Below, piece after piece: positions 4,726-32,000 of a stretch of DNA of 32,000 nt. The notes under the pieces are model-generated. The model was not told where the DNA came from. It saw only the letters and a list, made by a program, of their open reading frames with translations, and made no database searches. The stretch comes from Horticoccus luteus (GTDB taxonomy: Bacteria; Verrucomicrobiota; Verrucomicrobiia; Opitutales; Opitutaceae), in the NCBI RefSeq assembly GCF_019464535.1, contig NZ_CP080507.1, forward strand, positions 2,700,001 through 2,732,000. The letters run 5' to 3'. Made by a program: the position numbers and the translations under genes. Positions within the stretch are counted from its first letter, which is position 1, and each line of letters starts with the position of its first letter.

Positions 4726-4729
4726 CGCG

Positions 4730-5152: not shown

Positions 5153-5230
5153 CCCATTGCTCTTTCAGTCAAACCGAGCCCAAAACTTTCCCTCGTCAGC
5201 GCCATCCTCGCTCCTTTCACTTTCACCCTC

Positions 5231-6196: not shown

Positions 6197-6352
6197 CGCG
6201 ACCGCCGCGCGCGCCACCCCCAGCGTTTCCTTCTCGCCTCGTGATGTTCGTCCTCCCGATTTCCCCATCGCATGCGCGGCCGGCTCACGAGCCGCCCGCG
6301 CGTCGCTCGCGTTTCTCTGCCGCGCGCCGCCCGGGGATTGGAGCTTAACGGC

Positions 6353-8289: not shown

Positions 8290-8350
8290 AAACGCCTCCG
8301 CGTGCTCCCGCCTCACCGCGGTCCTCAACGCCGTCCGCCGGCCCGTGCGC

Positions 8351-13017: not shown

Positions 13018-16000
13018 ATGCTTCCTCCCTCCCTCCTCCGCCTCGCCCGTGCCGCCGCTCCTCTTCGCGCGATTGCACTGCTCACCGGTCTTGCCGGTCT
13101 CGCCGCCGCCGTTCACGCCACGCCGCTGAACTGGGCCGGCACCGGCTACAGCCTGAGCCCCGCCGCGAATTGGACCGAAGCGACCGCGCCCTCCGCCTCC
13201 TCGGATTTGGTGATCACGAAAAACGGCACCACCAGCGGCGGCAGCGGCACCTCGAACTTCCTGATGGGCGGCAACCTCACGATCCGCTCCATCACGTTCA
13301 ACAACGCCTCCGCCCAGTTCAACGCCTCCAATGGCGCCCGCGTCATCACGACCAACAGCTCAAGTTCCAGCGCGAGTTACACGCTTTCGTTCGCGACCCC
13401 CGGCGTTGATATCATCACGCTCACCAACAACACCAACGCCTCCTTCCGCAGCGCCAGCCTCAGTGGCAACAGCAGCGCCGACCCGCAGCCAGCTCTGTCG
13501 ATCGACCTCAATTACTCCGGCACCGCCAACCTCAACATTCAGGATACCTCCATCCTGCTCGTCAGCGCCGGTTCCTACAACACCACGGAAGCCAGACTCT
13601 CCGGCACCGGCGGTCTCGTGAAAATCGGCACCGGCTCCCTCACGCTCTCCGGCAACCACACCTACGCCGGTGGCTTCACCCTCCAAGACGGCACGGTCAC
13701 CGTCACGACCTCCGGCACCGTCACCGCCAATACCATCACCAATTCGCCGTTCGGCACCGGCGCCCTCACCATCCGAGGCGGCACGCTGATCGCCTCCAGC
13801 AACACCAGCCGCTCGGTTTATGGCTCCGTCAACCTCGACGGCGTGGCCACGATCACCTCCACCTCCAACGGCACCGCCGGCAACTACACGATCAGCTCGC
13901 TCGCCAACGGCGCCACGACGTTGTTGAGCAACTCCACCATCGTCGTCCCCGGCCCGGCCTACGACACCGCCAACGCCACCAACGTCGGCGGCCAGGTCAC
14001 GTGGAATCAGGCCATCTCCGGCGATTTCAGCCTCACCAAAATGGGCGCCGGCACGCTCGTCCTCAACACCAACAGCCCCTTCGCCGGCGGACTCGCCGTC
14101 AAGGAGGGCCTTCTCCGCGTCGATTCCACCGCCAACCTCGGCAAACTCCCCAGCACCGAAAACCCCGACGCCGTGGTGTTCGACGGCGGCTCGTTCGAAG
14201 TCACCGGCAGCAGTTTCTCCTCGCCCAATCGCGGCTTCCGCATCGCTCCCGCCACGAGCTTCACCGTCGACGACGGCATTTCGCTTCGCATCCAAGGCTC
14301 CATCCGCGACGTCGCCGGAAAATCCGGCCGCCTGATCAAGGCCGGCCCCGGCGTTCTCGCTCTCGAACCTGCCGCGGGCATGGTCTACACCTACTCCGGC
14401 GGCACGCAGGTGGATGCCGGCACTCTCCAACTCATGGCCGCCACGCTCGGCGCGAGCGGCAGCCCCGGCGTCACGTTTGCCGATGGCACCTCGCTCGAAG
14501 GTAACGGCACCCTCGTCGGCGACGTTGTCCTCTCCGCAACGACCCGCGTGAGCCCCGCCACCTACGGCGACATCAATCCGCCCAACAACACCCTCGGCGT
14601 CACCGGCGTCGGCACGATCACCGTCAACGGCAACCTCGCTCTCTCCGCTGTCGCCGCCACCCCCGGCTCCCTCGCGTTCGACCTCGACGCTCCCGGCACC
14701 AACGACGCCCTCGCCGTCACCGGCGGCACGCTCTCCCTCGGCAACGCCGTGTTCGGATGGCCCAGCTTTGCGTTCACCACCACGGGCAGTTTTGCGGAAG
14801 GTCGCTACACGCTCTTGACCAGCGATAGTCCGATGACCGGCTCCCTCGCGGCCTCTGTGACCGGCGATATCGGCACGCTCAAAGGCACCGTCCTCCTCAG
14901 CCACGATCGCACCAAACTCTTCCTCGTGGTCGACACCGCCGGCTCGTTCGCCGGCCCGGACATCACCACGCAGCCCGCCAGCCTCGGTGTCGTCGTCGGC
15001 TCGCCCGTCACGCTCACCGTCGCCGCCAACGGCTCCCAACTCACCTATCAATGGAAAAAAGATGGCGTCGATTTGCCCGGTGAAACAAAGGCCACGCTGT
15101 CCCTCGCCGCCGCCGGTTTTGGCGATGCCGGGGACTACGTCGTGACGGTGGCCAACACCGCCGAATCGCTCGTCAGCCAGTCCGCCACGCTTGCTGTCAC
15201 CGCCGCGATGGTCGCGCCATCCATTACCACGAACCCCGTCGCCACCAGCGCCAACATCGGCCACAGCGTCACCTTCTCCGTCAGCGCCAGCGGCACCGCT
15301 CCGTTCACTTATCAATGGTCCAAAGACGGCGTCGCCATCGCGGGTGCGACCGAAGCGACATTCACCATCGCGAGCCCCACGGCCAGCGACGCCGGTGGTT
15401 ACACCGTCGCCGTCACCAACGCCTCCGGCACCGCGATTAGCGCCGCCGGCACGCTCACCATCAATCCCGGCGCCTACCTCTCCAATCTTTCTGTCCGCGC
15501 CGCCATGAACGAAGGCCAGACGCTCATCGTCGGCTTCGTCATCGCCGGTGGCGCCAAGCCCATCCTCGTGCGCGCCGCGGGTCCCGCCCTCAACGCGTTC
15601 GGCCTCACCGGGCTGCCCGATCCGCGCCTCGCCCTCTACGACGAACACAGCACCAACGTCGGCGCCAACGACGACTGGGACGGCGCGCTCGCGCCTCTCT
15701 TCAGCCAGCTCGGCGCCTTCGGATTCGCGCCCGGCAGCAAAGACGCCGCGCTCCAGCAAACCATCAACGGCCCGCACACCGCCCAAGCCACCGGTCTGGG
15801 CAACGGCACCATCCTCGTCGAAGGCTACGACGCCGGGGCCAACGACGGCCGCAAACTCGTCAACCTCTCCGCGCGTTATCACGTCGGCACCGGCGCCGAC
15901 GTCCTCATCGTCGGCTTCGTCGTCAACGGTTCCGGCACCAAGGATGTCCTCATCCGCGCCGTCGGCCCGACCCTTGCCAGCTTCGGTGTCACCGGCACCC

Positions 16001-16242
16001 TCGGCGATCCCAAGCTCGATGTGTATGACGACGCCGGCCACGTCGTCGCGAGCAACGACAACTGGAATGCGAACCTCGCCGGTATCTCCGCCACCCTCGG
16101 CGCCTTCCCGCTCAACCCCGCCAGCAACGACGCCGCCATCCTCGTCACCGTCGAAGCCGGCAAGACCTACACCGCGCAAATCTCCGGCGTGAACAACGGC
16201 ACCGGTGAAGCCCTCGTCGAAGTCTACGACGCCAACCCGTAA
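13018..16242 (+). CDS. secreted PATR (autotransporter-associated beta-strand repeat) protein with 2 Ig-like domains and a tandem C-terminal module; no PEP-CTERM
   Basis: Signal peptide ...LLTGLAGLAAAVHA, then TPLNWAG. PATR repeats (GTGGLVKIGTGSLTLSGNHTYAGGFTLQDGTVTV, LTKMGAGTLVLNTNSPFAGGLAVKEGLLRV, LIKAGPGVLALE..YSGGTQVDAGTLQL). Two Ig-like domains carry YQW(K/S)KDG. Two copies of a ~125-aa module follow (NLSVRA..LIVGFV..ILVRAAGPAL..DP.L.LYD..NDDW). Confidence 0.9.
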   Translation: MLPPSLLRLARAAAPLRAIALLTGLAGLAAAVHATPLNWAGTGYSLSPAANWTEATAPSASSDLVITKNGTTSGGSGTSNFLMGGNLTIRSITFNNASAQFNASNGARVITTNSSSSSASYTLSFATPGVDIITLTNNTNASFRSASLSGNSSADPQPALSIDLNYSGTANLNIQDTSILLVSAGSYNTTEARLSGTGGLVKIGTGSLTLSGNHTYAGGFTLQDGTVTVTTSGTVTANTITNSPFGTGALTIRGGTLIASSNTSRSVYGSVNLDGVATITSTSNGTAGNYTISSLANGATTLLSNSTIVVPGPAYDTANATNVGGQVTWNQAISGDFSLTKMGAGTLVLNTNSPFAGGLAVKEGLLRVDSTANLGKLPSTENPDAVVFDGGSFEVTGSSFSSPNRGFRIAPATSFTVDDGISLRIQGSIRDVAGKSGRLIKAGPGVLALEPAAGMVYTYSGGTQVDAGTLQLMAATLGASGSPGVTFADGTSLEGNGTLVGDVVLSATTRVSPATYGDINPPNNTLGVTGVGTITVNGNLALSAVAATPGSLAFDLDAPGTNDALAVTGGTLSLGNAVFGWPSFAFTTTGSFAEGRYTLLTSDSPMTGSLAASVTGDIGTLKGTVLLSHDRTKLFLVVDTAGSFAGPDITTQPASLGVVVGSPVTLTVAANGSQLTYQWKKDGVDLPGETKATLSLAAAGFGDAGDYVVTVANTAESLVSQSATLAVTAAMVAPSITTNPVATSANIGHSVTFSVSASGTAPFTYQWSKDGVAIAGATEATFTIASPTASDAGGYTVAVTNASGTAISAAGTLTINPGAYLSNLSVRAAMNEGQTLIVGFVIAGGAKPILVRAAGPALNAFGLTGLPDPRLALYDEHSTNVGANDDWDGALAPLFSQLGAFGFAPGSKDAALQQTINGPHTAQATGLGNGTILVEGYDAGANDGRKLVNLSARYHVGTGADVLIVGFVVNGSGTKDVLIRAVGPTLASFGVTGTLGDPKLDVYDDAGHVVASNDNWNANLAGISATLGAFPLNPASNDAAILVTVEAGKTYTAQISGVNNGTGEALVEVYDANP
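14953..15468 (+). repeat. 2 tandem Ig-like (I-set-like) domain repeats inside the CDS
   Basis: ITTQPASLGVVVGSPVTLTVAANGSQLTYQWKKDGVDLPGETKATLSLAAAGFGDAGDYVVTVAN and ITTNPVATSANIGHSVTFSVSASGTAPFTYQWSKDGVAIAGATEATFTIASPTASDAGGYTVAVTN. Confidence 0.75.
15469..16239 (+). repeat. tandem duplication of an uncharacterised ~125-aa C-terminal module (copy set 1)
   Basis: Unit 1 YLSNLSVRAAMNEGQTLIVGFVIAGGAKPILVRAAGPALNAFGL..DPRLALYD..NDDWDG..LGAFGF..SKDAAL..ILVEGYD. Unit 2 LVNLSARYHVGTGADVLIVGFVVNGSGTKDVLIRAVGPTLASFGV..DPKLDVYD..NDNWN..LGAFPL..SNDAAILV..EALVEVYDANP. Confidence 0.7.
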
Positions 16243-19446: not shown

Positions 19447-19523
19447 TCACGCCCGATGGATTGCTCTAGTCTGAAGGACCGGTCCGCATTGTCCGCGAAT
19501 TCTTGCCCTGGTTTTTCTTTTCC

Positions 19524-21671
19524 ATGCCCCTGATCTCTATCCCCCGCACGTACTCGTTTTTCCTCGCCGCCGCCTGCGCTTGGTCAATCGCCTCCGCCCA
19601 AACCACCCTCACGTGGGACGGTGGAACGGCTGGGACTGGCCGCACGTGGTCATCCGGGTCCAATTGGGATTCCAACAATGCTCCCAACGGCGACGACCTC
19701 GTCATTGGCAGTGGCACACTCGGTGGCTCCGCGACCCAAATCGGCGGCGGAAACTACATGGCACTGAGCTCAAACGCTTCGGCTTATACCTCCACGATTA
19801 GGAGCGTCACGTTCGACAATTCCAACAATCAGTTTCCCGGCGGCACGCTCGACCTCCGCAATTCGTCCGCCACCCCCGCCCAAAGTGCCACCATCGCCTT
19901 TACGTCGACCGGGGTGGATGCCATTAAGGTAGTCAGCGGCGACGTGATCATGCAGTCGCGCACTTCGAGCGCGCAACTGACGCTCAACCTGAACTACTCC
20001 GGTCTCTCCAATGTCGATATCGCTTCCGGAAGTACGCTCACCATTTCGAGTCACCCCGTCTCGGGCACAGCCACCAACAATGCCGTCATCACCGGCACGG
20101 GCGGCATAAACAAGACCGGCGCGGGCACGCTCATCCTCACCGGCCCCACCGGGAATGATTTTGCCGGTGGCCTCAAAATTTCCGCCGGCACGGTCAATTT
20201 TGACAACGCTTCCTTGTTGACGGCGCCCGCGACCAAGACCGCCGACGTCGTGACGATCAACGGCGGCCGCCTTCAATACTCCAGCGCGTCGGGCACAATC
20301 CTCAGCGCCAACGCCGGCGTCACGTTCGGCTCCGGTAACGCCACGGTCGACGTCTCCGGCGCGGGCACGTTCGAGATCCAAGGCACCGTTGCTGGCTCGG
20401 GACAACTCATCAAAACCGGCGCCGGCACGCTGTATTTCCACAATTCCAACACGGAAGCTAACACGTTCGCCGGAGGCACCGTCATCGAGGAAGGCATAAT
20501 CTACCTCGGCCGCAGCGGCAGCCTTGGCACCGGCACGATTCAACTCGGTGTCGCCGGCGGCGGTGACGCCAGTCTCATCGCGAACCTCAGCGGCTGGACG
20601 CAAAGCAATGCCATCGACGTCGCCGCCGGTAGCAGCGGCACGCTCACCATCGGCAGCAGGACGAGTGCCTCCAACACCTTCTCCGGTCCTGTCACCTTCC
20701 ACGGCGACGTTACCATCGACAACTCAAACAGCCTCGGGAATGCCATGATCTTCACCAACACCGTGTCCGGCGCCGGCGCTGTCACGAAAACCGGCACTGG
20801 CGAATGGCGCCTCACCGGTTCCAATTCCTCCACCGGCCCCGTCACGATCTCCGGTGGTTCCGTGAGTGGCGCGCTCGGCAGTGGTTCCCTCACGATCGCC
20901 ACCGGCTCAATCTACGACTTGTACGGAAGTGACCGATCAACCGGTGCTCTCGCAGGCTCCGGCACGATTGTCCTCGGAGCAAACACGCTCACAACCACCA
21001 GCGACTCCAGTTCGACGTTCTCCGGCGCTCTCTCCGGCACGGGCAATCTGATCAAGGCCGGCGCCGGCAATCTCACTCTTTCAGGAACGAACACGTTCTC
21101 CGGCGCCACCACCGTATCCGCCGGCACCTTGAGCGCCCACGGCACCCTCGGCGGCTCCTCCCTCACCGTCTCATCCGGCGCCACCCTCGCCGGCGCGGGC
21201 ACGATTTCAGCCCCCACGACGCTCGCGGCCGGCGCGACGCTCGCCTCGACCTCCCTCACGTTCGACAGCAGCCTCGATCTCTCCGCCGTCGCCGGCACGA
21301 GCGCTCATTCGCTCCTTTTCACCCTCACCGCCCCCGGCACCAGCGACACCGCCAGTATCAACGGCGTGCTCTCCATCGGCAGCCACGCGCTCACACTCGA
21401 CGATTTTTCCCTCAACACCTCCGCGCTCTCCGGTCCCGGCATCTACACGCTTTTCCAAAGCACCCACGCGATCTCCGGCCTGCTCGGCGACGCTGGCAAC
21501 CTCACCGCCTCGTTCGACGGCTACACCGGCACGCTCGGTTTCAACGGCGACTCCACCGCACTCCAGCTCACGGTTTCCGCCATCCCCGAGCCCTCGACCT
21601 ACGCTCTCCTTCTGGCCGCGGCGACCGGACTCGCGGTGTTCGCCCGTCGGCGCCGTGGCTCGCACCGGTAA
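19524..21671 (+). CDS. PATR (autotransporter-associated beta-strand repeat) protein with PEP-CTERM sorting signal
   Basis: ATG 19524 gives MPLISIPRTYSFFLAAACAWSIASA (signal), then QTTLTWDGG. PATR repeats (INKTGAGTLILTGPTGNDFAGGLKISAGTVNF, LIKTGAGTLYFHNSNTEANTFAGGTVIEEGIIYL, LIKAGAGNLTLSGTNTFSGATTVSAGTLSAHG). The C-terminus is IPEPSTYALLLAAATGLAVFARRRRGSHR: PEP, TM helix, Arg cluster. The track ORF opens at TTG 19503. Confidence 0.9.
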   Translation: MPLISIPRTYSFFLAAACAWSIASAQTTLTWDGGTAGTGRTWSSGSNWDSNNAPNGDDLVIGSGTLGGSATQIGGGNYMALSSNASAYTSTIRSVTFDNSNNQFPGGTLDLRNSSATPAQSATIAFTSTGVDAIKVVSGDVIMQSRTSSAQLTLNLNYSGLSNVDIASGSTLTISSHPVSGTATNNAVITGTGGINKTGAGTLILTGPTGNDFAGGLKISAGTVNFDNASLLTAPATKTADVVTINGGRLQYSSASGTILSANAGVTFGSGNATVDVSGAGTFEIQGTVAGSGQLIKTGAGTLYFHNSNTEANTFAGGTVIEEGIIYLGRSGSLGTGTIQLGVAGGGDASLIANLSGWTQSNAIDVAAGSSGTLTIGSRTSASNTFSGPVTFHGDVTIDNSNSLGNAMIFTNTVSGAGAVTKTGTGEWRLTGSNSSTGPVTISGGSVSGALGSGSLTIATGSIYDLYGSDRSTGALAGSGTIVLGANTLTTTSDSSSTFSGALSGTGNLIKAGAGNLTLSGTNTFSGATTVSAGTLSAHGTLGGSSLTVSSGATLAGAGTISAPTTLAAGATLASTSLTFDSSLDLSAVAGTSAHSLLFTLTAPGTSDTASINGVLSIGSHALTLDDFSLNTSALSGPGIYTLFQSTHAISGLLGDAGNLTASFDGYTGTLGFNGDSTALQLTVSAIPEPSTYALLLAAATGLAVFARRRRGSHR

Positions 21672-21953: not shown

Positions 21954-24113
21954 ATGAAGTCGTTGCCTCGCCTCCCTGTTCTCAACGTTCTCACCCTCGG
22001 CCTCGCCGCCCTCCTAACCGCGTCGTTGCGCGCCACGCCGATCGAATGGGCGGGAACCAACTCCGGCAATTGGAATGCCGCGGCCAACTGGACGCCCAAC
22101 ACAACCATCGACAACAGCGGGACTCAGGATCTCCTCATTAAGACCAGCGGCAACGCCAGCCCCGTCACGACCATGCAGGTGAGCAGCGCCACGGGTAACG
22201 GCACGGCGGCCTTCAGCATTCGCTCGCTCTCCATCGACGACACCGCCGCCCTCCTGCACAACGCAACCGTCGGTCTGCGCATCGCCGCGACCAACAGCGC
22301 TTCCAGCAGTAACAGCACCACGCTGACCTTCAGCACGCCGGGCATCAATATCATCTCCGCCGCCAACGGCGCGACCGTGAGCTTGAACGCCACTACCTCT
22401 ACGGGCACCGGCACCCCCTCGATGACGATCAACCTTGGCTACTCGGGCGCCGGCACGCTCCAGGTCGACGGCACCTCGAAGCTTCTGATCAACGCGGCCA
22501 GCACCACCATCTCTGGCACCGGCGGCCTGATTAAAGACGGTGCGGGCAGCCTCACTCTCTCCGGCAATCACACTTACACCGGCGGCTTCACCTTGCAGGC
22601 CGGCACGCTCGTCCTCACCAGCTCCGGCGCACGCACTGGCGACAACACCGCCGTCGCCAATTCCGCCTTCGGCACCGGCACCGCCACCCTGAATGGGGGC
22701 ACCCTCCTGAGCTCGGGCGCCGCCGGCGGCGGCACCTCCGCCCGCACCATCTATTCCTCCGTCATCCTGAACGGCAACGTTGAGATGACAAACTCCACCA
22801 CCGGCAACATCACGCTCAGCACCTCGGCCGGCCAAGCCACCGCCCTCGGTGGTAATTCCACCTTGAACGTCGGCGGCAACGTCACGTGGGACCAGTCCAT
22901 TTCCGGCGACTACAGTCTCACCAAAACCGGCGCCGGCACCCTCGCCCTCAACGGCACCAACACCTTCAGCGGTCTCAACATCAACGCCGGCACCGTTAAC
23001 GTCGACTCCGTCACCGCTCTCGGCTCTTCCGCCGCGCTCAACCCTTCCAGCGTCGTGCTGAACGGCGGCACGCTCGCTTTCGCCTCGGGCAGCGACACCT
23101 CCGCTTCCTCCAATCGCGGGTTCCAAATCGGCTCCGGCAACGGCACGATCGATCTCTCCTCCGGCCGCAACGTCACCCTCCTCGGCAACATCACCGACGT
23201 CACCGGCCAGCACGGCATGCTCACCAAGACCGGCGCGGGCACCCTCACGCTCTCCGGCGCCAATTCCTACTCCGGCAGCACCACCGTCCAAGGCGGCGCG
23301 CTCGCGGGCGATGCGACCAGCCTCCAAGGCGCCATCGTCCTTAACAACGCGTCCTCGGTCACCTTCAACCAGACCTCCGACGGCACCTACGCGGGTTCGC
23401 TCTCTGGCAACGGCTCCTTCACCAAGCTCGGCGCCGCCACCCTCATCGTCAGCAACTCCTCCGCTCACACCGGACCCAACAACGTCGCCGAAGGCGCCCT
23501 CATTCTCCAAGACGCCGTCTTCGGCGGTAACGGCAGCGCCGGCCTCGTCGTCCAGTCCGGCGCCAAGCTCGCCGGCTCCGGCATCATCCGCGGCGACACT
23601 GTCCTGAACGAGGGCTCCTTCCTTTCGATGGACACCTACACCGGAGGCGTCGTTTCGAACGTGATCGGCAAGATCTCGTTCAACAACAATCTCGACCTCT
23701 CCGGCATCGCCGCCTTCTCGACCTCGCCCGTCACCATTCCCACTCCCTTCGGCGCTCCCCTGGCTTTCGATCTCGGCTCCAGCAACTACAGCGACCAGAT
23801 CGTCGTTTACGGCACGCTCGATATTGGCAACGGCCTGCTCGATTTCGCCGACTTCAGTTTCACCACCGCCGCCTCCCTGCACGACGCCACCTACACCCTC
23901 TTCTCCGCTCCCAACGCGACGATCGCAGGCAGCCTGGGCACCACCCTGGTGAGGGATTTCGGCGACGGTTTCACCGGCACCCTCTCGCTCACCGACCACG
24001 CGGTGCAACTCACCCTCGTCGGCGCGCCTATTCCCGAGCCCTCCACTTACGCCGCGCTCCTCGGCGGCATCGTGGCACTCGCCGCCGTTTATCGCCGGCG
24101 CCGCGCCCGCTAA
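21954..24113 (+). CDS. PATR (autotransporter-associated beta-strand repeat) protein with PEP-CTERM sorting signal
   Basis: Signal MKSLPRLPVLNVLTLGLAALLTASLRA, then TPIEWAG. Co-linear with the 13018 gene through the PATR region (LIKDGAGSLTLSGNHTYTGGFTLQAGTLVL, LTKTGAGTLALNGTNTFSGLNINAGTVNV, LTKTGAGTLTLSGANSYSGSTTVQGGAL). The C-terminus is IPEPSTYAALLGGIVALAAVYRRRRAR. Confidence 0.9.
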   Translation: MKSLPRLPVLNVLTLGLAALLTASLRATPIEWAGTNSGNWNAAANWTPNTTIDNSGTQDLLIKTSGNASPVTTMQVSSATGNGTAAFSIRSLSIDDTAALLHNATVGLRIAATNSASSSNSTTLTFSTPGINIISAANGATVSLNATTSTGTGTPSMTINLGYSGAGTLQVDGTSKLLINAASTTISGTGGLIKDGAGSLTLSGNHTYTGGFTLQAGTLVLTSSGARTGDNTAVANSAFGTGTATLNGGTLLSSGAAGGGTSARTIYSSVILNGNVEMTNSTTGNITLSTSAGQATALGGNSTLNVGGNVTWDQSISGDYSLTKTGAGTLALNGTNTFSGLNINAGTVNVDSVTALGSSAALNPSSVVLNGGTLAFASGSDTSASSNRGFQIGSGNGTIDLSSGRNVTLLGNITDVTGQHGMLTKTGAGTLTLSGANSYSGSTTVQGGALAGDATSLQGAIVLNNASSVTFNQTSDGTYAGSLSGNGSFTKLGAATLIVSNSSAHTGPNNVAEGALILQDAVFGGNGSAGLVVQSGAKLAGSGIIRGDTVLNEGSFLSMDTYTGGVVSNVIGKISFNNNLDLSGIAAFSTSPVTIPTPFGAPLAFDLGSSNYSDQIVVYGTLDIGNGLLDFADFSFTTAASLHDATYTLFSAPNATIAGSLGTTLVRDFGDGFTGTLSLTDHAVQLTLVGAPIPEPSTYAALLGGIVALAAVYRRRRAR

Positions 24114-24142: not shown

Positions 24143-24171
24143 GGGCGGGCCTCTCCCGGGCTCGCCCTTTT
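24143..24171 (+). terminator. candidate rho-independent terminator
   Basis: GGGCGGGCC, loop TCTCCCG, GGCTCGCCC (9-bp stem with one G-U pair), followed by TTTTCATTT, 30 nt after the stop at 24113. Confidence 0.6.
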
Positions 24172-24188: not shown

Positions 24189-25154
24189 ATGACACCTGTC
24201 CCTTTCACTCTTTTCTCTCCCTTCCGACTCCTCTTCGTCGCCGCCCTGACCCTTGTCGCCGCGACGCTTACGCGCGCCGACGCCGCCGGTTACGAACCCG
24301 GCAAAACTTACCGAGACGCCAAAGGCTACGTGGAATTCCAACCCGGCTCGTTGCCCATCATCATCACGGCGCCCCACGGCGGCGAAAAGGGCCCGTCGAG
24401 CATCCCTGATCGCACCGAAGGCGTCCTCGTCTCCGATGCCAACACGCAGGATCTCGCTCGCCAGATCGCCGCGGAATTTTCGCGCCGCACCGGCCGGCAG
24501 GTTCACCTCGTCCTCAACCTTCTCCACCGGCGCAAACTCGATCCGAATCGCGAGATCAAGGAAGCCGCCCAAGGCAACCCCGATGCCGAAGCCGCCTGGC
24601 GCAATTATCACGCCGCCATCGACCGCGCCAAAGCCAGCGCCCTCGCCGCCTACGGATTCGCGTTCCTCGTCGATGTCCACGGTCACGGCCATGCCATCCC
24701 GCGCCTCGAACTCGGCTACGCCCTCGACAACGCCGCCCTCAACGTCACCGATGCCGCCCTCGACGCCGCCGACGTCGGCCCACACACCACCATCAACGAT
24801 CTCGCGGCACGCACGAAGGAGCCGTTTTCAAAACTTCTCCGCGGGCCCGGCAGCCTCGGCGATCTCTTTCAGCAACACGGCTTCCGCGCCGTCCCCAGCC
24901 CGCAAGAGCCGCAACCCGGTAACAACCTCTTTTTCGCCGGCGGTTACACCGTCCGCCGCCACGCCGCGTGGCCTGACTCGACCGGCGTCGACGGCGTGCA
25001 GATCGAGTGCAACCGCGACGCCCGCGCCACGCCGAAGTCCCGCGCCCAACTGGCCGCCGCCATCGCCGACGTCCTCACCACGTTTCTCGCTCAACGCTAC
25101 GCCTATACGTTACCCGCTCCTTCCGCCCGCCCGGCCGTCGCTCGCTCCGAGTAA
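24189..25154 (+). CDS. secreted N-formylglutamate amidohydrolase (FGase)-like metal-dependent hydrolase, free-standing
   Basis: Signal peptide FRLLFVAALTLVAATLTRADA. Motifs that I recognise from the FGase family: IIITAPHGG...IPDR, SDANTQDLA, LHRRKLDPNRE (compare sRlviDlNR), FLVDVHGHGH, GGYTVRRH, IECN. Paralogous over about 290 aa to the N-terminus of the 26025 gene. Confidence 0.75.
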   Translation: MTPVPFTLFSPFRLLFVAALTLVAATLTRADAAGYEPGKTYRDAKGYVEFQPGSLPIIITAPHGGEKGPSSIPDRTEGVLVSDANTQDLARQIAAEFSRRTGRQVHLVLNLLHRRKLDPNREIKEAAQGNPDAEAAWRNYHAAIDRAKASALAAYGFAFLVDVHGHGHAIPRLELGYALDNAALNVTDAALDAADVGPHTTINDLAARTKEPFSKLLRGPGSLGDLFQQHGFRAVPSPQEPQPGNNLFFAGGYTVRRHAAWPDSTGVDGVQIECNRDARATPKSRAQLAAAIADVLTTFLAQRYAYTLPAPSARPAVARSE

Positions 25155-25262
25155 ATTCCGCAAGTCGTTGCGCGTGTCGCCACCGTTCGTCTTCGCCTCG
25201 CCAACCGCGGCTGTTTTTCGGTTTGTTTCTCGTTCGATCTGACCTTTGACCCTGCACCTGCC

Positions 25263-25964
25263 ATGGCCTTTCGCTCCACGCTCTTTGTTCTCCTCACGCT
25301 CGCCAGCGCCGCCTCGCTCGCCGCCGAGACGTCCTACCAGTGGACCTTTAACGACCAGCCCGGCACCGCGCTCACCAAAGTCGGCGGCCCCGTCTCCTGG
25401 TCCAACGATCTCGACCAGACCGCCACCACCGGTCGCGGCACCCTGCGGATCCGCCGCGGCCACAGCACCACCCCCAACACCTTCGCCCCTCTCCCCGCCG
25501 CGTGGGCGCAACAGCCGCTCTGGCTCGTCGTGCGCGTCCGCGGCTGGAATCTCTCCGGCAAATCCCCCGAACTCGTCCGCCTCGGCTTCAGTTCCTCCGA
25601 CCATGAGAAAACCCCCTCCGTCGTCGCACAGATAAAAATCGCCCGCGAAGACGACGCCGTTCGCCTCTCCGCGGAAGCGACCGGCGGCGGCACCAACCTC
25701 GCACCAGTCGCGTTGCGCGGCGCGATTTCCAACCGCACCGTCATCGTCGTCCTGCACCTCGATCCGGGCGCGCGCACCTACGACGTCAACTTTCGCATCG
25801 AAGGCGCCAGTTGGCAGCAACTCGGCGCCGGCACAATCGCCGACGGCCGCGCCCCCCAATTTCTCCGCTTGGGCGTGAGCGGGCCGTTCGACACCAAACG
25901 CGCCGAATACTTCGACCTCGACGACCTCCTCGTGACGACCGTCAAACCTGCCGATCTCCCGTAA
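25263..25964 (+). CDS. secreted hypothetical protein (233 aa), possibly a beta-sandwich
   Basis: Signal peptide MAFRSTLFVLLTLASAASLAAE. The rest is beta-rich with alternating patterns (LWLVVRVRGW, VVAQIKIARE, VIVVLHLDP, YDVNFRIEG). GC3-rich codon usage is like its neighbours. I recognise no motif. Confidence 0.65.
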   Translation: MAFRSTLFVLLTLASAASLAAETSYQWTFNDQPGTALTKVGGPVSWSNDLDQTATTGRGTLRIRRGHSTTPNTFAPLPAAWAQQPLWLVVRVRGWNLSGKSPELVRLGFSSSDHEKTPSVVAQIKIAREDDAVRLSAEATGGGTNLAPVALRGAISNRTVIVVLHLDPGARTYDVNFRIEGASWQQLGAGTIADGRAPQFLRLGVSGPFDTKRAEYFDLDDLLVTTVKPADLP

Positions 25965-26024
25965 CGCCCGCTCGCCGCTCGCGCCCCGTTTTCGGTCCCG
26001 CCTTCTCTTCGCCTGTCTCTCGCC

Positions 26025-29000
26025 GTGAAGCCTTCCCGTCTCGCCGCCTTGATCGTCAGCGTCTGCGTCGCCCTCTGCGCCGCCGCCCAACTCGCGCGCG
26101 CCCAGCCCTACGTCGTCGGACAAAAATATTACGACGATTTCGCGACCAAATACATCGAATATATCCCCGGCGATTTACCCATCGTCATCACCGCACCACA
26201 CGGCGGATCGCTGACCCCGTTCGCCATACCCGATCGCGCCAATGGCACCTACACGATCGATGGCGTCAGCTATACTTTTGCCGCCAACACCAGCAACGAG
26301 ATCGTTACCGCCACCGATCTGAACACCGAAGACTTGGCCACCAAAGTGGTGAACGAGATTCTGGCCCGCACGGGCCATCGCCCGCATTTGATTATCTGTC
26401 ACTTGAAGCGCTCGAAGCTTGACGCGAACCGGGAGAAGACCGCCGCCGCACTCGGCAACCCGATCGCAGGCGCCGCTTGGGACGCCTACCAGGCGTTCAT
26501 CCTGGCCGCTCGCGCGACCGTGACGCGTGATTTCGGATTCTCCTTTCACGTCGATCTTCACGGGCACGGACACACCAACCAGCGACTCGAGCTCGGCTAC
26601 AACCTCTCCAGTTCCGACCTCGGTGTAAGTGACGCCGCCCTCAATCGCGCCGGGGTGCTCTACGATACCTCCGTGCGCACGCTGCCGCTCAACCGACCCG
26701 ACGTCACTCTCGCCACGGTCCTGCGCGGCTCCCGTAGCATTGGCGATTTCATGAGCACGTTGGGGTTCCCCGCTTGCCCGAGCCCGCAGGATCCTCAGCC
26801 CAAAGACAGCAGTTTTTTTCAAGGCGGCTACACCACGCGCACCCACACCTGCTGGACCGACAACGGCATCGATCACGGCCTCCAGATCGAATGCAATTCT
26901 GACGCCCGCACCGACGCCAACCGTCCGCTCTTCGCCGCCGCGCTCGCCCAAGCCCTCAACGCCGTCCTCTTCGACAACTACGGCTACAGCCTCGGCGCCG
27001 CCCCCATTTATCGTCTCTCCGCACCCACCACGACGCTCACCGCCGGCGGCCCCAGCGTCACGGTCACCCTCCAGCGCAGCGGTTACGCCGCCTCCGCCGA
27101 TACCGTCGCCCTGAGCTTCGGCGGCAACGCCCTTCGCGGCACCGACTACACCGCCTCCGCCACCACCGTGTCGTTTTCCAGCGGGGAAACCTCGCGCACC
27201 ATCACGCTCACGCCGCTGACTGTCGGCGGCTCCGCCGACAAAACCATCACCGTTCAACTCGCCCCCGTCGTCCCGCAAACCGCCGACACCACTCCGCTCA
27301 CCTTCGCGCTCGCCAGTGGATCGTTGCCCATCGTGCGCGTCACCGCCGACGCCGCCACCGTCAGCGAGTCCGCCGGCTCCGCGATCTTCCGTTTCACCCG
27401 CACCACCTCCGTCGGCCCCCTCACCGTCAACGTCGCGTGGAGTGGCGATGCGACCGTCGGCCGCCACTATCTCGAGCCGATCGGATCGAGCTTCACCTTC
27501 GCCGACGGCCAATCCGAATTCGCCCTCACTGTCCCGTTGATCGACGACGGCCGCCCAGATCCTGCGCGCCAGCTCACGTTGAGCGTCACCTCGGGAACCG
27601 GCTACGTCCTCGGCACGCGCCCGTCCGCGACCGTGCAAATCACCGACGACGATCATCCCGCCGGCCTCGCCCTCTGGCTCGCTCGCGGTCTCGATGGCAA
27701 CCGCCTCCCCGACGACTCCGGCCAAGGCCGCGATGGCGCCGGCGTGCCCGGCAACGCCCCCACGCCCACGACCTGGACGACCGGCAACGCTTCCGGCAGC
27801 GGCCTCGCATTCAACGGCGCCTATCAAGCCGCGCTCGTCCCCCGCTTCACCGTCGATCCGCAAAACGCGTTCACCCTCTCGTTCCGTTTTCGCACCAGCG
27901 CTTACTCGACCAACCAATACCTCGTTTCCTACGGGCCGCGCGACTCCGCCGGCAGCCTCACGGTTTACATGACGAGTGCGACGACGCTCCGCACCTCCCT
28001 CAACAACTCCGCGGGCACGCTCAACGCCGCCGACCTCGACACCGCCATTCCCAATCTCACCAACAACACCTGGCGCCTCTACACGCTCACGGTCGACCCG
28101 ACCGGCGGACGTCGCGTTTACATCGACGGCGTGCTGCAAAAATCCGCCGGCGGCTGGTCCGGCTCGCTCTCGCCCACCGAACTTTTCTGGCTCGGCTGGC
28201 GCGCGCAAGCCACCACCTCGAGCGCCAATTATTTCACCGGCTCCCTCGCCGATGTCCGCGTTTATCAACGCGCGCTTTCCGCCGCCGAGGTCACCTCGCT
28301 TTCTTCCGGCACCTCCACATTTGCGACGTGGCTCGCCGAGCAAGGCCTGCCCGCCAACGAACACGTTTACGACGACGACGACGCCGATGGCTGGGGCGCC
28401 GCCCTCGAATACGCTCTCGGCACCAATCCCCTCGCCGCCGCCTCCGCGCCCGTCATCACCGCCACGCGCGGCGACGGCACCGTGCAATTCGATTTCACCC
28501 GCCGCACCGACACGACCGACGTCGCCCTCGCCCTCGAATACGCCACGTCGTCCTCCGGCCCGTGGTTCGGCGTCGCCTCGCTCGCCGCCGGCGCCTCGAC
28601 CTGGAACGCCGACCCTGACGTCGTCGCGACCGACGCGGCCGGCGCCGTCTCGCTCCTCGTCAACGACGAAACCACGCCGCGCTTGTGGCGCCTGCGCGCT
28701 GCCATCGGCGTCAACACCACCGCCACCGAAATCACGCCCTCCGTCGCTCCCGTGTTCACCACGCAGCCCGTCGCGCAATCCGCGATCACCGGCACCACCG
28801 TCACCCTCAGCGTCGCCGCCACGGGCCTGCCCGCACCGGTTTATCAGTGGGCCAAAGACGGCGTCGCGCTCCCTGGCGAGACCTCTCCCACACTCACGCT
28901 CGCCAACGCCCAACCCTCTGCCAGCGGCGCCTACACGGTCGTCGCCTCCAACTCCGCCGGCTCCGCCACCAGCACCCTTGCGCAGGTCGTCATCGGCGAT

Positions 29001-30806
29001 GCCCCCGTCATCCTCGCCGCGCCCACGTCTGAATCCGTCGTCGCCGGCACCCACGTCGCACTCTCCGTCACCGCCTTCGGCGCCGACCCGCTCACGTATC
29101 AATGGCGCAAAAACGACGTCGACCTCCCCGGCGCCACGGCCGCGACGCTTGCATTCACCCCGGTGCAGATGTCCGACGCTGGCAACTACAGCGTCGTCGT
29201 CACCAACCCCCTCGGCAGCACCTCGAGCAGCGCGGCCACGCTCACCGTCGTCGCCACCGCCATCGCGCCAACCATCACGGCACCGCCGCAGTCGCAGACG
29301 CTTTACACCGGCCAGACCCTCGCGCTCTCGGTGACGCCCGCCGGCACGAGCCCGTTCACCTACCAATGGGCCAAGGACAACGCCCCGCTCACCGGCGCCA
29401 CCGCCGCCACGTTCAACGTCGCGTCCGCCGCGGTCACCGATGCGGGCAACTACACCGTCACCATCACCAACGATGCCGGCTCGATCACCAGCGCACCTGC
29501 CTCCGTCGCGGTCACGACCGCCACCGCGCCTGCGATTACGACGCAGCCCGTCGCACAATCCGTCATCGCCGGCGCGACCGTCACCTTCAGCGTCGCCGCA
29601 AGCGGCAATCCCGCGCCCGCGTATCAATGGAGCCGCAACAGCACGCCCCTCGCCGGCGCTACGTCCGCGACGCTCGTGCTTACCAACGTCACCTCCGCCG
29701 ACGCCGGCCTCTACTCCGTCGTCGTGACGAACCCTGGCGGCAGCGTCGGGAGTCTCGCCGTCAACCTCACCGTCCTCACGCCTCCCACCATCGCCACGCA
29801 GCCGCAATCCCGCGCGTCCGTCGAAGGCAGCGAAGTCACGTTCACCGTCGCGGTCAGCGGCTCCGGCCCGTTCACTTACCAATGGCGCAGAAACGGCGTC
29901 GCCCTCTCCGGCGCGACGTCCGCTTCCCTCACGTTGACCAACCTCGCGTCGACTGACGCCGGCACTTACAACGTCGTCGTGACGGGCGCAGGCGGCACGG
30001 TGCCCAGCGCCGACGCCACCCTCACGGTCGCGCCGCCCAGCTATCTTTCCAACCTCTCCGTGCGCGCCGCGATGGACGAGGGCCAGACGCTCATCGTCGG
30101 CTTCGTGGTAAGCGGCACCGCCAAACCCATCCTCGTGCGCGCCGCCGGCCCCGCCCTCGACACGTTCGGCCTGGCCGGCGTTGCCGACCCGCATCTCGCC
30201 CTTTACCAAGGAACCAACCTCGTCGCCGGCAACGACGATTGGGACGATTCACTCGCAACCGTCTTCACCCACCTCGGAGCGTTTCCGTTTACCTCCGGCA
30301 GCAAAGACGCCGCCCTCCTGCAAACCCTCACCGGCGTTTACACCGCGCAAGCATCGGGCACCGGCAACGGCAGCGTGCTCGTCGAAGCTTACGACGCGCA
30401 GGCCGGTTCCGCCGCGCGCTTCACCAACTTGTCCGCGCGTTTTCACGTCGGCACCGGGAGCGATATTCTCATCGCCGGTTTCGCCGTGGGCGGCGGCGGC
30501 TACAAAGCCGTGCTCATCCGCGCCGTCGGTCCCGCGCTCGCCGCCTTCGGCGTGCCCGGCACGCTCGCCGACCCCAAACTCTCGATCTACGATCAGAACG
30601 GCAACTTCATCGTCGGGAACGATAATTGGTCCGGCACGCTCGTGCCCATCTTCAAACGCCTCGGCGCGTTCCCCCTCTATGACGGCAGCGCGGACGCCGC
30701 CATCCTCGTTTCCCTCGAGGCCGGCAAATCCTACACCGTGCAAGTCGTCGGCGCCGACGGCGGCACCGGCGAAGCGCTCGTCGAGATCTACGACAACAAC
30801 CCGTAG
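26025..30806 (+). CDS. 1593-aa secreted multidomain protein: FGase-like hydrolase, 2 Calx-beta-like, LamG-like lectin, linker domain, 5 Ig-like, tandem C-terminal module
   Basis: GTG start and signal LAALIVSVCVALCAAAQLARA. FGase-like region ~26110..26995 (IVITAPHGG..IPDR, TATDLNTEDLA, LKRSKLDANRE, FHVDLHGHGH, GGYTTRTH, IECN). Calx-beta-like ~27000..27290 and ~27330..27655 (GTDYTASATTVSFSSGETSRTITLTP; ..FTFADGQSEFALTVPLIDDGRPD). LamG-like ~27660..28310 (..WRLYTLTVDPTGGRRVYIDGVL..GSLADVRVYQRALSAAEV). DDDDADGWGAALEYALGTNP motif. Ig-like x5 28743..30038. Tandem module 30039..30803 ending EALVEIYDNNP. Confidence 0.9.
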   Translation: MKPSRLAALIVSVCVALCAAAQLARAQPYVVGQKYYDDFATKYIEYIPGDLPIVITAPHGGSLTPFAIPDRANGTYTIDGVSYTFAANTSNEIVTATDLNTEDLATKVVNEILARTGHRPHLIICHLKRSKLDANREKTAAALGNPIAGAAWDAYQAFILAARATVTRDFGFSFHVDLHGHGHTNQRLELGYNLSSSDLGVSDAALNRAGVLYDTSVRTLPLNRPDVTLATVLRGSRSIGDFMSTLGFPACPSPQDPQPKDSSFFQGGYTTRTHTCWTDNGIDHGLQIECNSDARTDANRPLFAAALAQALNAVLFDNYGYSLGAAPIYRLSAPTTTLTAGGPSVTVTLQRSGYAASADTVALSFGGNALRGTDYTASATTVSFSSGETSRTITLTPLTVGGSADKTITVQLAPVVPQTADTTPLTFALASGSLPIVRVTADAATVSESAGSAIFRFTRTTSVGPLTVNVAWSGDATVGRHYLEPIGSSFTFADGQSEFALTVPLIDDGRPDPARQLTLSVTSGTGYVLGTRPSATVQITDDDHPAGLALWLARGLDGNRLPDDSGQGRDGAGVPGNAPTPTTWTTGNASGSGLAFNGAYQAALVPRFTVDPQNAFTLSFRFRTSAYSTNQYLVSYGPRDSAGSLTVYMTSATTLRTSLNNSAGTLNAADLDTAIPNLTNNTWRLYTLTVDPTGGRRVYIDGVLQKSAGGWSGSLSPTELFWLGWRAQATTSSANYFTGSLADVRVYQRALSAAEVTSLSSGTSTFATWLAEQGLPANEHVYDDDDADGWGAALEYALGTNPLAAASAPVITATRGDGTVQFDFTRRTDTTDVALALEYATSSSGPWFGVASLAAGASTWNADPDVVATDAAGAVSLLVNDETTPRLWRLRAAIGVNTTATEITPSVAPVFTTQPVAQSAITGTTVTLSVAATGLPAPVYQWAKDGVALPGETSPTLTLANAQPSASGAYTVVASNSAGSATSTLAQVVIGDAPVILAAPTSESVVAGTHVALSVTAFGADPLTYQWRKNDVDLPGATAATLAFTPVQMSDAGNYSVVVTNPLGSTSSSAATLTVVATAIAPTITAPPQSQTLYTGQTLALSVTPAGTSPFTYQWAKDNAPLTGATAATFNVASAAVTDAGNYTVTITNDAGSITSAPASVAVTTATAPAITTQPVAQSVIAGATVTFSVAASGNPAPAYQWSRNSTPLAGATSATLVLTNVTSADAGLYSVVVTNPGGSVGSLAVNLTVLTPPTIATQPQSRASVEGSEVTFTVAVSGSGPFTYQWRRNGVALSGATSASLTLTNLASTDAGTYNVVVTGAGGTVPSADATLTVAPPSYLSNLSVRAAMDEGQTLIVGFVVSGTAKPILVRAAGPALDTFGLAGVADPHLALYQGTNLVAGNDDWDDSLATVFTHLGAFPFTSGSKDAALLQTLTGVYTAQASGTGNGSVLVEAYDAQAGSAARFTNLSARFHVGTGSDILIAGFAVGGGGYKAVLIRAVGPALAAFGVPGTLADPKLSIYDQNGNFIVGNDNWSGTLVPIFKRLGAFPLYDGSADAAILVSLEAGKSYTVQVVGADGGTGEALVEIYDNNP
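28743..30038 (+). repeat. 5 tandem Ig-like (I-set-like) domain repeats, about 86 aa period, inside the CDS
   Basis: Each unit has the pattern (I/F)TTQP..Q(S/T)...G..V.(L/F)SV.A.G..P..YQW(A/R/S)(K/R)(D/N).. L.GAT.ATL.(L/F)..V...DAG.Y.VVVTN..GS..S..A.LTV. Confidence 0.8.
30039..30803 (+). repeat. tandem duplication of the uncharacterised ~125-aa C-terminal module (copy set 2)
   Basis: SYLSNLSVRAAMDEGQTLIVGFVVSGTAKPILVRAAGPALDTFGL..DPHLALYQ..NDDWD.. and FTNLSARFHVGTGSDILIAGFAVGGGGYKAVLIRAVGPALAAFGV..DPKLSIYD..NDNWS... Roughly two-thirds aa identity by eye to 15469..16239. Shared exact nucleotide runs of 26 nt (15514..15539 = 30081..30106) and 20 nt (15559..15578 = 30126..30145). Confidence 0.7.
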
Positions 30807-30986
30807 CGCCCGCCCGTCGCCCGACCGTTCACCGCCGTAGCGCACATCCTCCGCCGGCGCTACACCCCTCTGCTCCGCCTGCCCGCGGAGCGCACGCGTC
30901 TCGTGAGCGGATTGTCCGAATTCGCCGGACTGTCGCTCCAGCGCTTTCCGCGCTTCCTTGGACGCTCACCCAACCCCGCTCCTCTC

Positions 30987-32000
30987 ATGTCGCCCTTCCT
31001 GCTGCGCCGCTGCGCCGGTGTCTCCCTCGCTCTCCTCCTCACCATGCAAGCTTTTGGTCACATCGGGGATCGTTTCCCCGCGGAAAAGAAGATCGTCGTC
31101 GATCCCGTCACCGGCGCTCCGCTGAGTTTTCTCACCAGCCAGCCGCGCGGCGATTCCAAGATCTATCAAACGCATCACCAATGGACCTCCGACGGCCAGT
31201 GGGTCGTCTTCCGCTCCAACCGCGTGCGCGGCCAGGCGATGGCGGTCAACGAGCACACGGGCGACATCGTGCAAGTCACCGAACACGGTTACTCCGGCAT
31301 GCTCTGCCTCGCCGACCACTCGATGAACCTGTATTTCGTGCGTCTGCCCGAAAGCCAACCGCCGACCGCCGTGACCGGTGCCGAACCCGCCACGCCCGCC
31401 GTTAAAGCCGGCGAATCCCACGGCGCCGCGCAAATCGTGCGCGTCGATCTCGGCAAACTTTTCCTCGACAGCGCGGCCGGCACCGTCGGCCCCGCCACCG
31501 ATTACGAACACGTGTGCGGCGTCGTCCCATCGGAGTTGGGCGCCGTCGGCGACGTCGCCCTCGATTGTACGGAAGATTACGCCTACTTCCGCGTGGCCGG
31601 CCGTGACGTCGCGCAACGCCACCTCGCACCGGGCACCAAGCTCGAGCCCGACTTCGGCCCGCGTCACATGGGCGCCGGCCCGACGGGTCTCGCCAGCATG
31701 AACCTGCACACCGGCGAGGTGAAATTCATCGTCGCCGTGCCCTTTCAAATTGGCCACGTGCAGACCAATCCTTGGGTGCCCGGCGAAATCGTCTTTTGCT
31801 GGGAAACCGGCGGCAAAGCTCCCCAGCGCACGTGGACGGTCCGCGCCGATGGCACCGGCTTGCGTCCGCTTTATCCGGAAGCGTCCTACGATTGGGTCAC
31901 GCACGAAGCGGTCATCACCAAAGACGAAGTGGCGATGGCGCTCATGGGCCACCGCCCCGTCGGCACCGACGACGCGTGGGGCGCCTGCGGCACGCGCGAA
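30987..32000 (+). CDS. partial CDS (3' end beyond window): secreted beta-propeller protein, oligogalacturonate lyase (PL22)-like / TolB-like
   Basis: Not in the ORF track because it has no stop inside the window. Hand translation from ATG 30987 is open for 338 codons: MSPFLLRRCAGVSLALLLTMQAFG (signal) ..KIYQTHHQWTSDGQWVVFRSNRVRGQAMAVNEHTGDIVQVTE.. GHVQTNPWVPGEIVFCWETGG.. These resemble Ogl-family propeller motifs as I remember them. The 328-aa minus-strand track ORF (30966..31952) is its Arg/Gly-rich shadow. Confidence 0.65.
   Translation, partial: MSPFLLRRCAGVSLALLLTMQAFGHIGDRFPAEKKIVVDPVTGAPLSFLTSQPRGDSKIYQTHHQWTSDGQWVVFRSNRVRGQAMAVNEHTGDIVQVTEHGYSGMLCLADHSMNLYFVRLPESQPPTAVTGAEPATPAVKAGESHGAAQIVRVDLGKLFLDSAAGTVGPATDYEHVCGVVPSELGAVGDVALDCTEDYAYFRVAGRDVAQRHLAPGTKLEPDFGPRHMGAGPTGLASMNLHTGEVKFIVAVPFQIGHVQTNPWVPGEIVFCWETGGKAPQRTWTVRADGTGLRPLYPEASYDWVTHEAVITKDEVAMALMGHRPVGTDDAWGACGTRE

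Follow-up and report, generated by a model that had tools for sequence, protein, structure and literature searches.

What two enzymes of a family treated as small cytoplasmic catabolic hydrolases are doing behind signal peptides, one of them as the head of a 1593-residue modular protein, is the question raised by three consecutive genes, here called A, B and C, in a 32,000-nucleotide stretch of Horticoccus luteus DNA (contig NZ_CP080507.1, positions 2,700,001 to 2,732,000; the window, in whose numbering positions are given). The three open reading frames (ORFs), delimited and spaced identically in an earlier note made from the sequence alone, were confirmed on the plus strand at 24189-25154 (A, 321 aa), 25263-25964 (B, 233 aa) and 26025-30806 (C, 1593 aa, GTG start), with an A-B spacer of 108 nt (25155-25262) and a B-C spacer of 60 nt (25965-26024). 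The genes represent a new, apparently exported, modular and lectin-coupled branch of the N-formylglutamate amidohydrolase (FGase) / zinc-hydrolase superfamily, lying in a conserved three-gene unit of Opitutaceae; as to function, we regard it as somewhat probable that A-B-C is a conserved Opitutaceae-type operon for an extracytoplasmic, lectin-guided amide-hydrolysing system. A literature search for exported or secreted FGase-family proteins found no description of any, in agreement with the earlier note, which knew of no system of such composition.

Family assignment of A and the head of C

Gene A passes the Pfam FGase model PF05013 (49.6 bits, cutoff 28.9), and the match is collinear from the PHGG motif through the terminal IEC motif. 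The catalytic head of C (aa 27-325; 26103-26999, +) scored alone reaches 20.1 bits, under the same cutoff, and is placed in the FGase superfamily because it is homologous to A: the alignment of A with residues 1-360 of C covers 296 positions at 45% identity (E 2e-76). Every motif quoted by the earlier note for an A/C paralogy of about 290 residues is present; the FGase assignment made there thus holds for A by profile and by fold, but for the C head only by way of A. In Pfam, PF05013 was the sole family reported for A (E<=0.1) and for the C head (E<=10), with no Amidase_3, M14, AstE_AspA or PF05908. When A, a 94-sequence profile and the C head were compared with PDB chains by sequence and by profile, the matches were at chance level only, and PHROGs returned nothing for A, B or the C head.

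The AlphaFold (AF2) model of A, built on the 94-sequence alignment, has a pLDDT of 94.3 and a pTM of 0.89. Its best Foldseek matches are the FGase structures 2odf and 2q7s (E 4e-7 to 8e-7, probability 1.00, 14-15% identity; target-normalised TM 0.5-0.6), followed by the M14-like 2qvp, Francisella REP34 (4oko) and the Amidase_3 protein AmiP (7b3n), with succinylglutamate desuccinylase (AstE) and carboxypeptidases among the further matches; a library of viral structures returned FGase-like proteins, MurNAc-L-Ala amidases and zinc carboxypeptidases. These comparisons show A and the C head to be long-diverged paralogues, and the FGase / zinc-hydrolase clade that contains them is a large exported one. 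A rough neighbour-joining tree separates A-type from C-type domains into two old clades, and the pair is therefore not the product of a recent duplication.

With the FGase family (PF05013, HutG, 2q7s, 2odf) A thus has in common the fold, the collinear profile match and probably metal-dependent amide hydrolysis on a carboxylate-bearing amine. It differs from that family in its low identity to solved members, in an extra helical segment of ~70 residues (aa 178-250), and in its failure against the HutG equivalog model TIGR02017, where a partial match of 25.6 bits misses the cutoff of 278.75 by an order of magnitude. It differs further in appearing to be exported, in belonging to a clade often fused to lectin, immunoglobulin (Ig) or secretion domains, and in having no hut context, no HutH, HutU or HutI being found among the window's larger ORFs scanned.

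Putative active site

Fourteen residues are invariant in 94 relatives (H63, R75, D83, R114, D118, N120, R121, D162, H164, H168, E174, Y177, Q271 and E273 in A numbering), and all 14 are kept in the C head. Among them H63, D83 and H164 (codons 24375, 24435 and 24678, +) are the putative metal ligands of A and E273 (codon 25005, +) its putative general base; the counterparts in C are H59, D98, H179 and E289, so that the metal-binding residues predicted for the pair have not been lost and the putative set is intact in both copies. In the AF2 model the first His comes after the first strand, the Asp opens the first long helix, the second His closes a central strand and the Glu closes the last one, positions that agree with the pattern of the zinc-hydrolase superfamily. 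On this assignment the H-D-H set would hold the metal, the R, the N-R pair and the tyrosine of GGY would hold the substrate carboxylate, and the glutamate ending the last strand would serve as general base, an arrangement that would parallel those of M14 carboxypeptidases and Amidase_3.

The active-site residues of carboxypeptidase A are H69, E72, R127, N144-R145, H196, Y248 and E270, and we take the invariant order H...D...R...N-R...H...Y...E of A to correspond to theirs. The likeness of A to M14 carboxypeptidases (carboxypeptidase A/N, MpaA, AstE/AspA) includes the superfamily fold, at low score (2qvp, 4oko, 2nsm, 1yw6); unlike the HxxE arrangement of those enzymes, however, the second ligand of A is an Asp, 20 residues past the His, and the Foldseek TM is ~0.3. 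Amidase_3 enzymes (AmiP 7b3n, phage endolysins) likewise have a related fold and, like A and C, are exported or extracellular, and their first-ligand motif GHGG is presumably similar to the PHGG of A; they differ in that no profile match links them to A or C, in that no peptidoglycan-binding partners are among those shown below, and in that the catalytic domain of A and C is much larger. Judged by the residues conserved, A and the C head are both probably functional metallo-amidohydrolases, with recognition of a free carboxylate beside the scissile amide.

Putative export signals and extent of the clade

By inspection, the N-termini of A, B and C each begin with a basic n-region, continue into 12-16 hydrophobic residues (the h-region) and reach a small-x-small site, with putative cleavage at TRA|DA in A, SLA|AE in B and ARA|QP in C and with no lipobox in any of the three. 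The signal peptides would comprise approximately aa 1-30 of A (24189-24278, +), approximately aa 1-20 of B (+) and aa 1-26 of C (26025-26102, +). Residues 11-30 of A form a lower-confidence N-terminal helix in the AF2 model, and 116 of 120 relatives of A pass an N-terminal hydrophobicity test. Both paralogues, to which the earlier note had also given signal peptides, therefore appear from their sequences to be exported. The end of C, ...GEALVEIYDNNP, matches neither PF07589 nor TIGR02595, whereas both neighbouring PATR-repeat proteins do match.

The earlier note had supposed that FGase-family proteins are small cytoplasmic enzymes. That supposition does not survive, and a fusion like C is not unique to the window. 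Word-indexed searching yielded over 1,284 relatives of A, of which the best 120 listed span 290-378 aa and all carry PF05013, and 635 relatives of the C head, many of them 390-570 aa long and bearing Big_1, Big_2, Por_Secre_tail, Cadherin_5 or Golvesin_C. An exhaustive HMMER scan of 1.84 billion representatives gave 2,010 clusters (50% identity) at E<=1e-3, many of which are multidomain, and 1,175 at E<=1e-10, with the FGase-like domain at the start, in the middle or at the end of proteins of up to 2,200 aa. A total of 558 loci were confirmed in genomes representing species; counted from record titles, the 80 best of them comprise ~31 from Verrucomicrobiota, 31 from Gemmatimonadota, 14 from Bacteroidota, 2 from Planctomycetota and 1 from Zixibacteria. 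The exported clade spans Verrucomicrobiota, Gemmatimonadota, Bacteroidota (with type IX secretion tails), Planctomycetota and Streptomyces, and since its exported members are so numerous across phyla, the cytoplasm-only premise is wrong.

Domain partners were tallied in 64 multidomain representatives, in which 44 families were matched and 25 are shown; 28 of the 64 match PF05013 at E<=1e-4. Por_Secre_tail, which Pfam does not find in A or C, occurs in 17 of these relatives, of other phyla, Laminin_G_3 in 16, Calx-beta in 11, Big_1 in seven, Golvesin_C in three, and F5/8 type C and NedA-like galactose-binding domains in two each. The golvesin / xanthan-lyase domain is a carbohydrate-binding domain resembling carbohydrate-binding module (CBM) families CBM6/35/36 (PMC9166713). 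Many relatives are auto-annotated 'N-formylglutamate amidohydrolase', a label that databases attach to thousands of exported proteins and that the evidence indicates to be wrong for the entire exported clade.

Architecture of gene C

The domain composition claimed for C in the earlier note (two Calx-beta, a LamG, an acidic motif, five Ig-like domains and a tandem C-terminal module) was borne out by Pfam and self-alignment. The head, described above, contains a loop insertion, TYTIDGVSYTFAAN (26247-26288, +), which is found in the window allele only; it follows the IPDR motif and, where about 14 residues had been estimated, corresponds to a 19-column gap in the pairwise alignment of A with C. 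Two Calx-beta domains follow (aa 335-545; 27027-27659, +; PF03160, 45.5 bits in two stretches), and then a ConA-like lectin domain of the Laminin_G_3 family (aa 598-756; 27816-28292, +; PF13385, 69.3 bits). The acidic motif DDDDADGWGAALEYALGTNP (aa 783-802; 28371-28430, +) opens a region that continues as an unannotated segment of ~105 residues ending in RLWRLRAAI (together 28371-28739, +) and has no Pfam match; motif and segment are kept after the LamG domain in relatives, several of which terminate there.

The five Ig-like domains (I-set / Ig_3; 28740-30035, +; five Pfam stretches) appear in self-alignment as copies at aa 903-980, 988-1076, 1076-1156, 1161-1255 and 1246-1338. Their number varies among related loci (designated by L numbers), from five in the window to two in L014 and none in L003, L016 and L017, and the Ig domains of C form a stalk of variable length. 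In L003 (10001-13524, Opitutus sp. metagenome-assembled genome GCA_009695185.1) two ORFs of 500 and 674 aa, sharing 4 nt, take the place of a single C-type gene, likely through a frameshift or an assembly error; if rejoined, the protein would have the head, two Calx-beta domains, LamG and the tandem module, with no Ig domain.

The last 256 residues of C are a tandem module of two ~128-residue repeats (30036-30803, +) with 46% identity between them. Neither Pfam nor a sequence search of the PDB gave a match to it, and PHROGs gave chance-level hits only (E >= 0.15). The same module, 64% identical, ends the window ORF 13018-16242 (module at 15466-16239), and it also ends an M23 peptidase of L014 (L014 14263-16692). 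It always stands at the extreme C-terminus, usually after Ig domains, and is joined to three N-terminal types: the FGase-like enzyme, a PATR protein and an M23 peptidase. A role in sorting or anchoring, peculiar to this lineage, is possible.

The recurrent cassette and the A-B-C unit

In every large Verrucomicrobial relative examined the same cassette recurs: after an FGase-like head come one or two Calx-beta domains, then LamG, then a 'W...EYALG..P' motif and finally the ~105-residue segment ending in RF.R.R. In all cassette-type relatives checked Laminin_G_3 is present, and Calx-beta follows directly after the head. The cassette is sometimes preceded by Peptidase_S8 or PATR repeats; some of the proteins stop after the ~105-residue segment, and others gain Ig domains and the tandem C-terminal module. 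Orthologues of C were found in L001, L009/L014, L015, L016, L017-L025, L027, L032, L033 and L036. One of these, L021 (CAMCZZ010000022.1), is a metagenome-assembled genome labelled Akkermansia muciniphila whose tblastn pattern and identities to the window C are the same as those of L022 (Verrucomicrobia bacterium IMCC26134) and L018; the label is probably wrong. The cultured strain IMCC26134, among others, has the cassette alone, in its case at about 1.72 Mb of CP011265.1, which makes its function directly testable.

At least seven other assemblies have the genes in the order A-B-C (L001, L009/L014, L015, L016, L020, L024 and L036), and A-C pairs without B occur in L019, L023 and L025. Identities to the window genes are 74-78% for A, 62% for B and 60% for C in L009/L014; for A, B and C respectively they are 52, 50 and 49% in L015, where the gaps are 9 and 6 nt, and 53, 47 and 45% in L016, where a second C-type gene comes next. 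The shortest intergenic gaps in related A-B-C loci are 5-9 nt. In the window a hairpin scan of the A-B and B-C spacers found no terminator-like site in either, and just 5' of A there is a terminator-like hairpin (24143-24167, +; a 10-pair stem with 8 G-C pairs, then T-rich TTTTCATTTC). This hairpin ends the upstream gene for a PATR-repeat protein with a PEP-CTERM sorting signal (21954-24113, +; PF12951 and PF07589 matches) and is the 5' boundary of the A-B-C unit. The suggestion that the three genes form one unit is thus supported by the absence of a hairpin between them, by the conserved order and by the short gaps elsewhere.

Gene B

The B protein has no Pfam, NCBIfam or PHROG match, and its family amounts to only four clusters among 5.8e9 proteins. 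Its AF2 model (pLDDT 70.7, pTM 0.74) is all-beta, and Foldseek returned 248 matches at E<=1e-3 with TM 0.4-0.54, mostly to legume lectins, GH43/GH16 beta-sandwiches, galectins and LNS/LamG domains. The fold model thus points to B as a putative stand-alone ConA-like carbohydrate-binding protein with a jelly roll. B is located between A and C in every related locus that has it, and B-like genes at 30-50% identity are found in L020, L024, L027 and L036. Neither this ConA-like model nor the replacement of the C head between sister strains, described next, was part of the earlier note.

Probable exchange of C segments between sister strains

Comparison with the sister contig L001 shows that C is a mosaic. 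A is identical at 319 of 321 positions and B at 232 of 233, and most 30-residue windows across the centre of C (aa 335-1160) show 97-100% identity. The head of the window C (26103-26999), in contrast to these flanks, is 62-63% identical to its counterpart at L001 3350-4280, with 23 gap columns, and the tail (aa 1161-1592; 29505-30803, containing Ig4, Ig5 and the tandem module) is 80-87% identical. Synonymous divergence (dS) is 0.86 in the head, 0.35 in the tail and 0.053 in the centre, in each case with a ratio of nonsynonymous (dN) to synonymous divergence of ~0.3, compared with a dS of 0.046 for A and 0.034 for B, where dN is so low (0.003 and 0.002) that dN/dS is not informative. The L014 head is 81% identical to that of L001 and 64% to that of the window.

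Since head and tail diverge amid near-identical flanks, the head, and less sharply the tail, appears to have been exchanged by recombination with diverged alleles and to have stayed under purifying selection. The high dS together with a dN/dS of ~0.3 points to an imported head allele, and positive selection in situ was rejected as the reason why the heads diverge. The difference might also come from an assembly in which paralogous heads were joined chimerically. Exchange of head alleles is consistent with varying specificity.

Proposed function and alternatives

In the operon that we favour, the enzymes would cut an amide bond beside a free carboxylate, so that an acyl group is taken off or else an amino acid or peptide is set free. 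C, with its head on Calx-beta spacers and beside the LamG domain on an Ig stalk, and with a terminal module found also in other exported proteins of the lineage, would attack a polymer associated with glycans, either at the cell surface or outside it; A, soluble in the periplasm, would complete the breakdown of fragments that have been imported; and B would supply the carbohydrate binding that is built into C, so that A and B together would mirror the head and LamG of C. Such a division of labour would resemble the pairing of surface and periplasmic enzymes in polysaccharide utilisation loci. The surface enzymes of those systems and type IX cargo proteins combine, as C does, a catalytic head with carbohydrate-binding domains and Ig-like spacers, a modular enzyme being paired in polysaccharide utilisation with a soluble periplasmic paralogue (the part that A would play), and the Bacteroidota relatives of A and C carry the Por_Secre_tail of type IX cargo. 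The present locus differs from both in that there are no SusC/SusD genes or type IX machinery here and in that its C-terminal module is unannotated.

Candidate substrates include acidic polysaccharides bearing amino-acid or peptide substituents, the stem peptides of peptidoglycan, and compounds with gamma-glutamyl or N-acyl groups. The lectin and CBM fusions of multidomain relatives are a clue toward glycans; peptidoglycan and gamma-glutamyl compounds, both put forward in the earlier note, are weak candidates. The chemistry of PF05013 includes the hydrolysis of N-formyl-Glu and, going by annotation, of gamma-glutamyl-glycine (PMC9397018).

Several observations weigh against a lectin-guided surface system. 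C is without a PEP-CTERM signal, an autotransporter barrel or a type IX tail, and could be periplasmic instead of surface-located; the extracellular, substrate-tethered placement that the earlier note drew from the architecture is a putative one. The metal ligands were assigned from conservation and from secondary-structure position, order and spacing, not from model coordinates. The model of B is of moderate confidence only, and because hhalign found no profile similarity between the B family and LamG domains from C-type proteins (probability 0.1), the lectin-like assignment of B depends on the fold model alone. Finally, the neighbours outside the trio point in different ways, and none of them is conserved across phyla.

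A broader proposal, which we put forward tentatively as a possibility short of an expectation, is that the exported clade as a whole consists of lectin-guided exo-amidases that strip carboxylate-bearing amino-acid, peptide or acyl substituents from complex glycans. Their targets would be amino-acid-amidated uronic-acid polysaccharides, capsules and cell-wall glycopolymers; the stripping would let lyases and glycosidases proceed, and swaps of head alleles would tune the enzymes to the decorations encountered. If the substrate is indeed a decoration of environmental or cell-wall glycans, the clade would be a new enzyme class in polysaccharide and necromass turnover in soil and freshwater.

The first alternative is that the pair are peptidoglycan hydrolases, acting on the MurNAc-L-Ala bond or on a gamma-D-Glu or other stem-peptide bond, to lyse or scavenge the walls of other bacteria or for remodelling of the cell's own wall. 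The fold-level likeness of A to Amidase_3 autolysins and endolysins and to M14-type enzymes would fit this idea, but Pfam finds no match to Amidase_3, M14 or PF05908. Two gene neighbourhoods would fit it too. In L014 the gene 7 nt after C encodes an M23 peptidoglycan endopeptidase with the same Ig domains and tandem C-terminal module, an adjacency that is, however, limited to one lineage, and the SIS-domain and NagK-like kinase genes that precede the free-standing orthologue in one Opitutaceae subclade are limited to closely syntenic genomes and are not in the window. Moreover LysM, PG_binding, SPOR and SH3 are absent among the 25 families shown of the 44 matched in the 64 multidomain relatives, whose partners are instead lectin- or CBM-like. 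A role in peptidoglycan hydrolysis is thus doubtful.

Doubtful also, and to a slightly greater degree, is the idea of a general nitrogen-scavenging role, with A and C as exported peptidases or deacylases (like carboxypeptidases, or hydrolysing gamma-glutamyl or N-acyl amino acids), for which the lectin and Ig domains would serve only as an anchor. Peptidases and amidases do recur near relatives in other phyla: among 80 loci, Peptidase_M28 is found in nine, Peptidase_S9 in seven, penicillin amidase in six and gamma-glutamyltranspeptidase in five (in two phyla). Each is thus confined to 5-9 of 80 loci, mostly close Gemmatimonadota, where shared synteny may account for it. The invariant R, N-R and Y residues suggest binding of a free carboxylate as in carboxypeptidases, and there are PF05013 members annotated as gamma-glutamyl-glycine amidohydrolases; scavenging would nonetheless leave unexplained why the head is so tightly and so repeatedly coupled to carbohydrate-binding domains, LamG among them.

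An interbacterial toxin-immunity set, in which A and/or C would be envelope toxins, C being polymorphic with an exchangeable head, and B the periplasmic immunity protein, is improbable. A diverged head allele between sister strains with flanks 97-100% identical is typical of polymorphic toxins, and B is a rare orphan seen only with A and C that has a putative signal peptide and counts the lectin-like enzyme inhibitor 1viw_B among its fold neighbours. An immunity protein would, however, be expected to co-vary with its toxin, whereas B remains 232/233 identical while the head differs by 38%, and A-C pairs exist without B. Furthermore, in contrast to known polymorphic toxins, the part that varies here is at the N-terminus, just after a Sec signal, its dN/dS is ~0.3, and no genes of type VI secretion, contact-dependent inhibition or type VII secretion were found among the window's larger ORFs scanned.

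That A and C are ordinary HutG N-formylglutamate amidohydrolases of histidine catabolism with mis-called signal peptides, as the automatic names of relatives and the score of A above the PF05013 threshold might suggest, is effectively refuted by the TIGR02017 score (25.6 against 278.75 bits), the absence of hut genes among the larger ORFs scanned, the hydrophobic N-terminal extension conserved in 116 of 120 relatives, the 14-15% identity to solved FGases and the fusions to secretion tails and lectin domains.

Neighbouring genes

The PATR protein just upstream of A is one of two paralogous PATR-repeat PEP-CTERM proteins (19503-21671 and 21954-24113, +). A PATR gene also lies 5' of A in L002, L009, L014 and L016, the PEP-CTERM end having been verified for the window and L016 copies. 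The window also encodes TPR proteins, several PATR surface proteins, of which these two have PEP-CTERM, and a Bat/MoxR operon; the operon, at 4715-12752 (+), is of Bat type and encodes a MoxR AAA_3 ATPase, a DUF58 protein, two VWA proteins and a BatD-plus-TPR protein.

Downstream of C, the ORF 30987-32000 (+) is a real gene that runs past the window end; its product starts with a signal peptide and resembles the oligogalacturonate lyase family PL22 only weakly, below threshold (15.8 bits). The listed minus-strand ORF 30966-31952 resembles an antisense artefact. Similarity to L001 stops at ~30809, beyond which L001 has an exosortase EpsH gene instead.

In L004-L008, which belong to one Opitutaceae subclade, a free-standing, exported FGase-like gene follows genes for an SIS_2 protein (PRK02947) and a NagK-like BadF-type ATPase, and it overlaps the NagK-like gene by 11 nt in L005 and L006. 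This adjacency may reflect a link to amino-sugar metabolism or plain shared synteny; as a general explanation an amino-sugar link was rejected, the cluster being confined to one syntenic subclade and absent from the window and from the loci of other phyla. Over the window as a whole, GC skew is negative in all 1-kb bins of 1-32000 (-0.11 to -0.32), and the convincing genes are nearly all on the plus strand.

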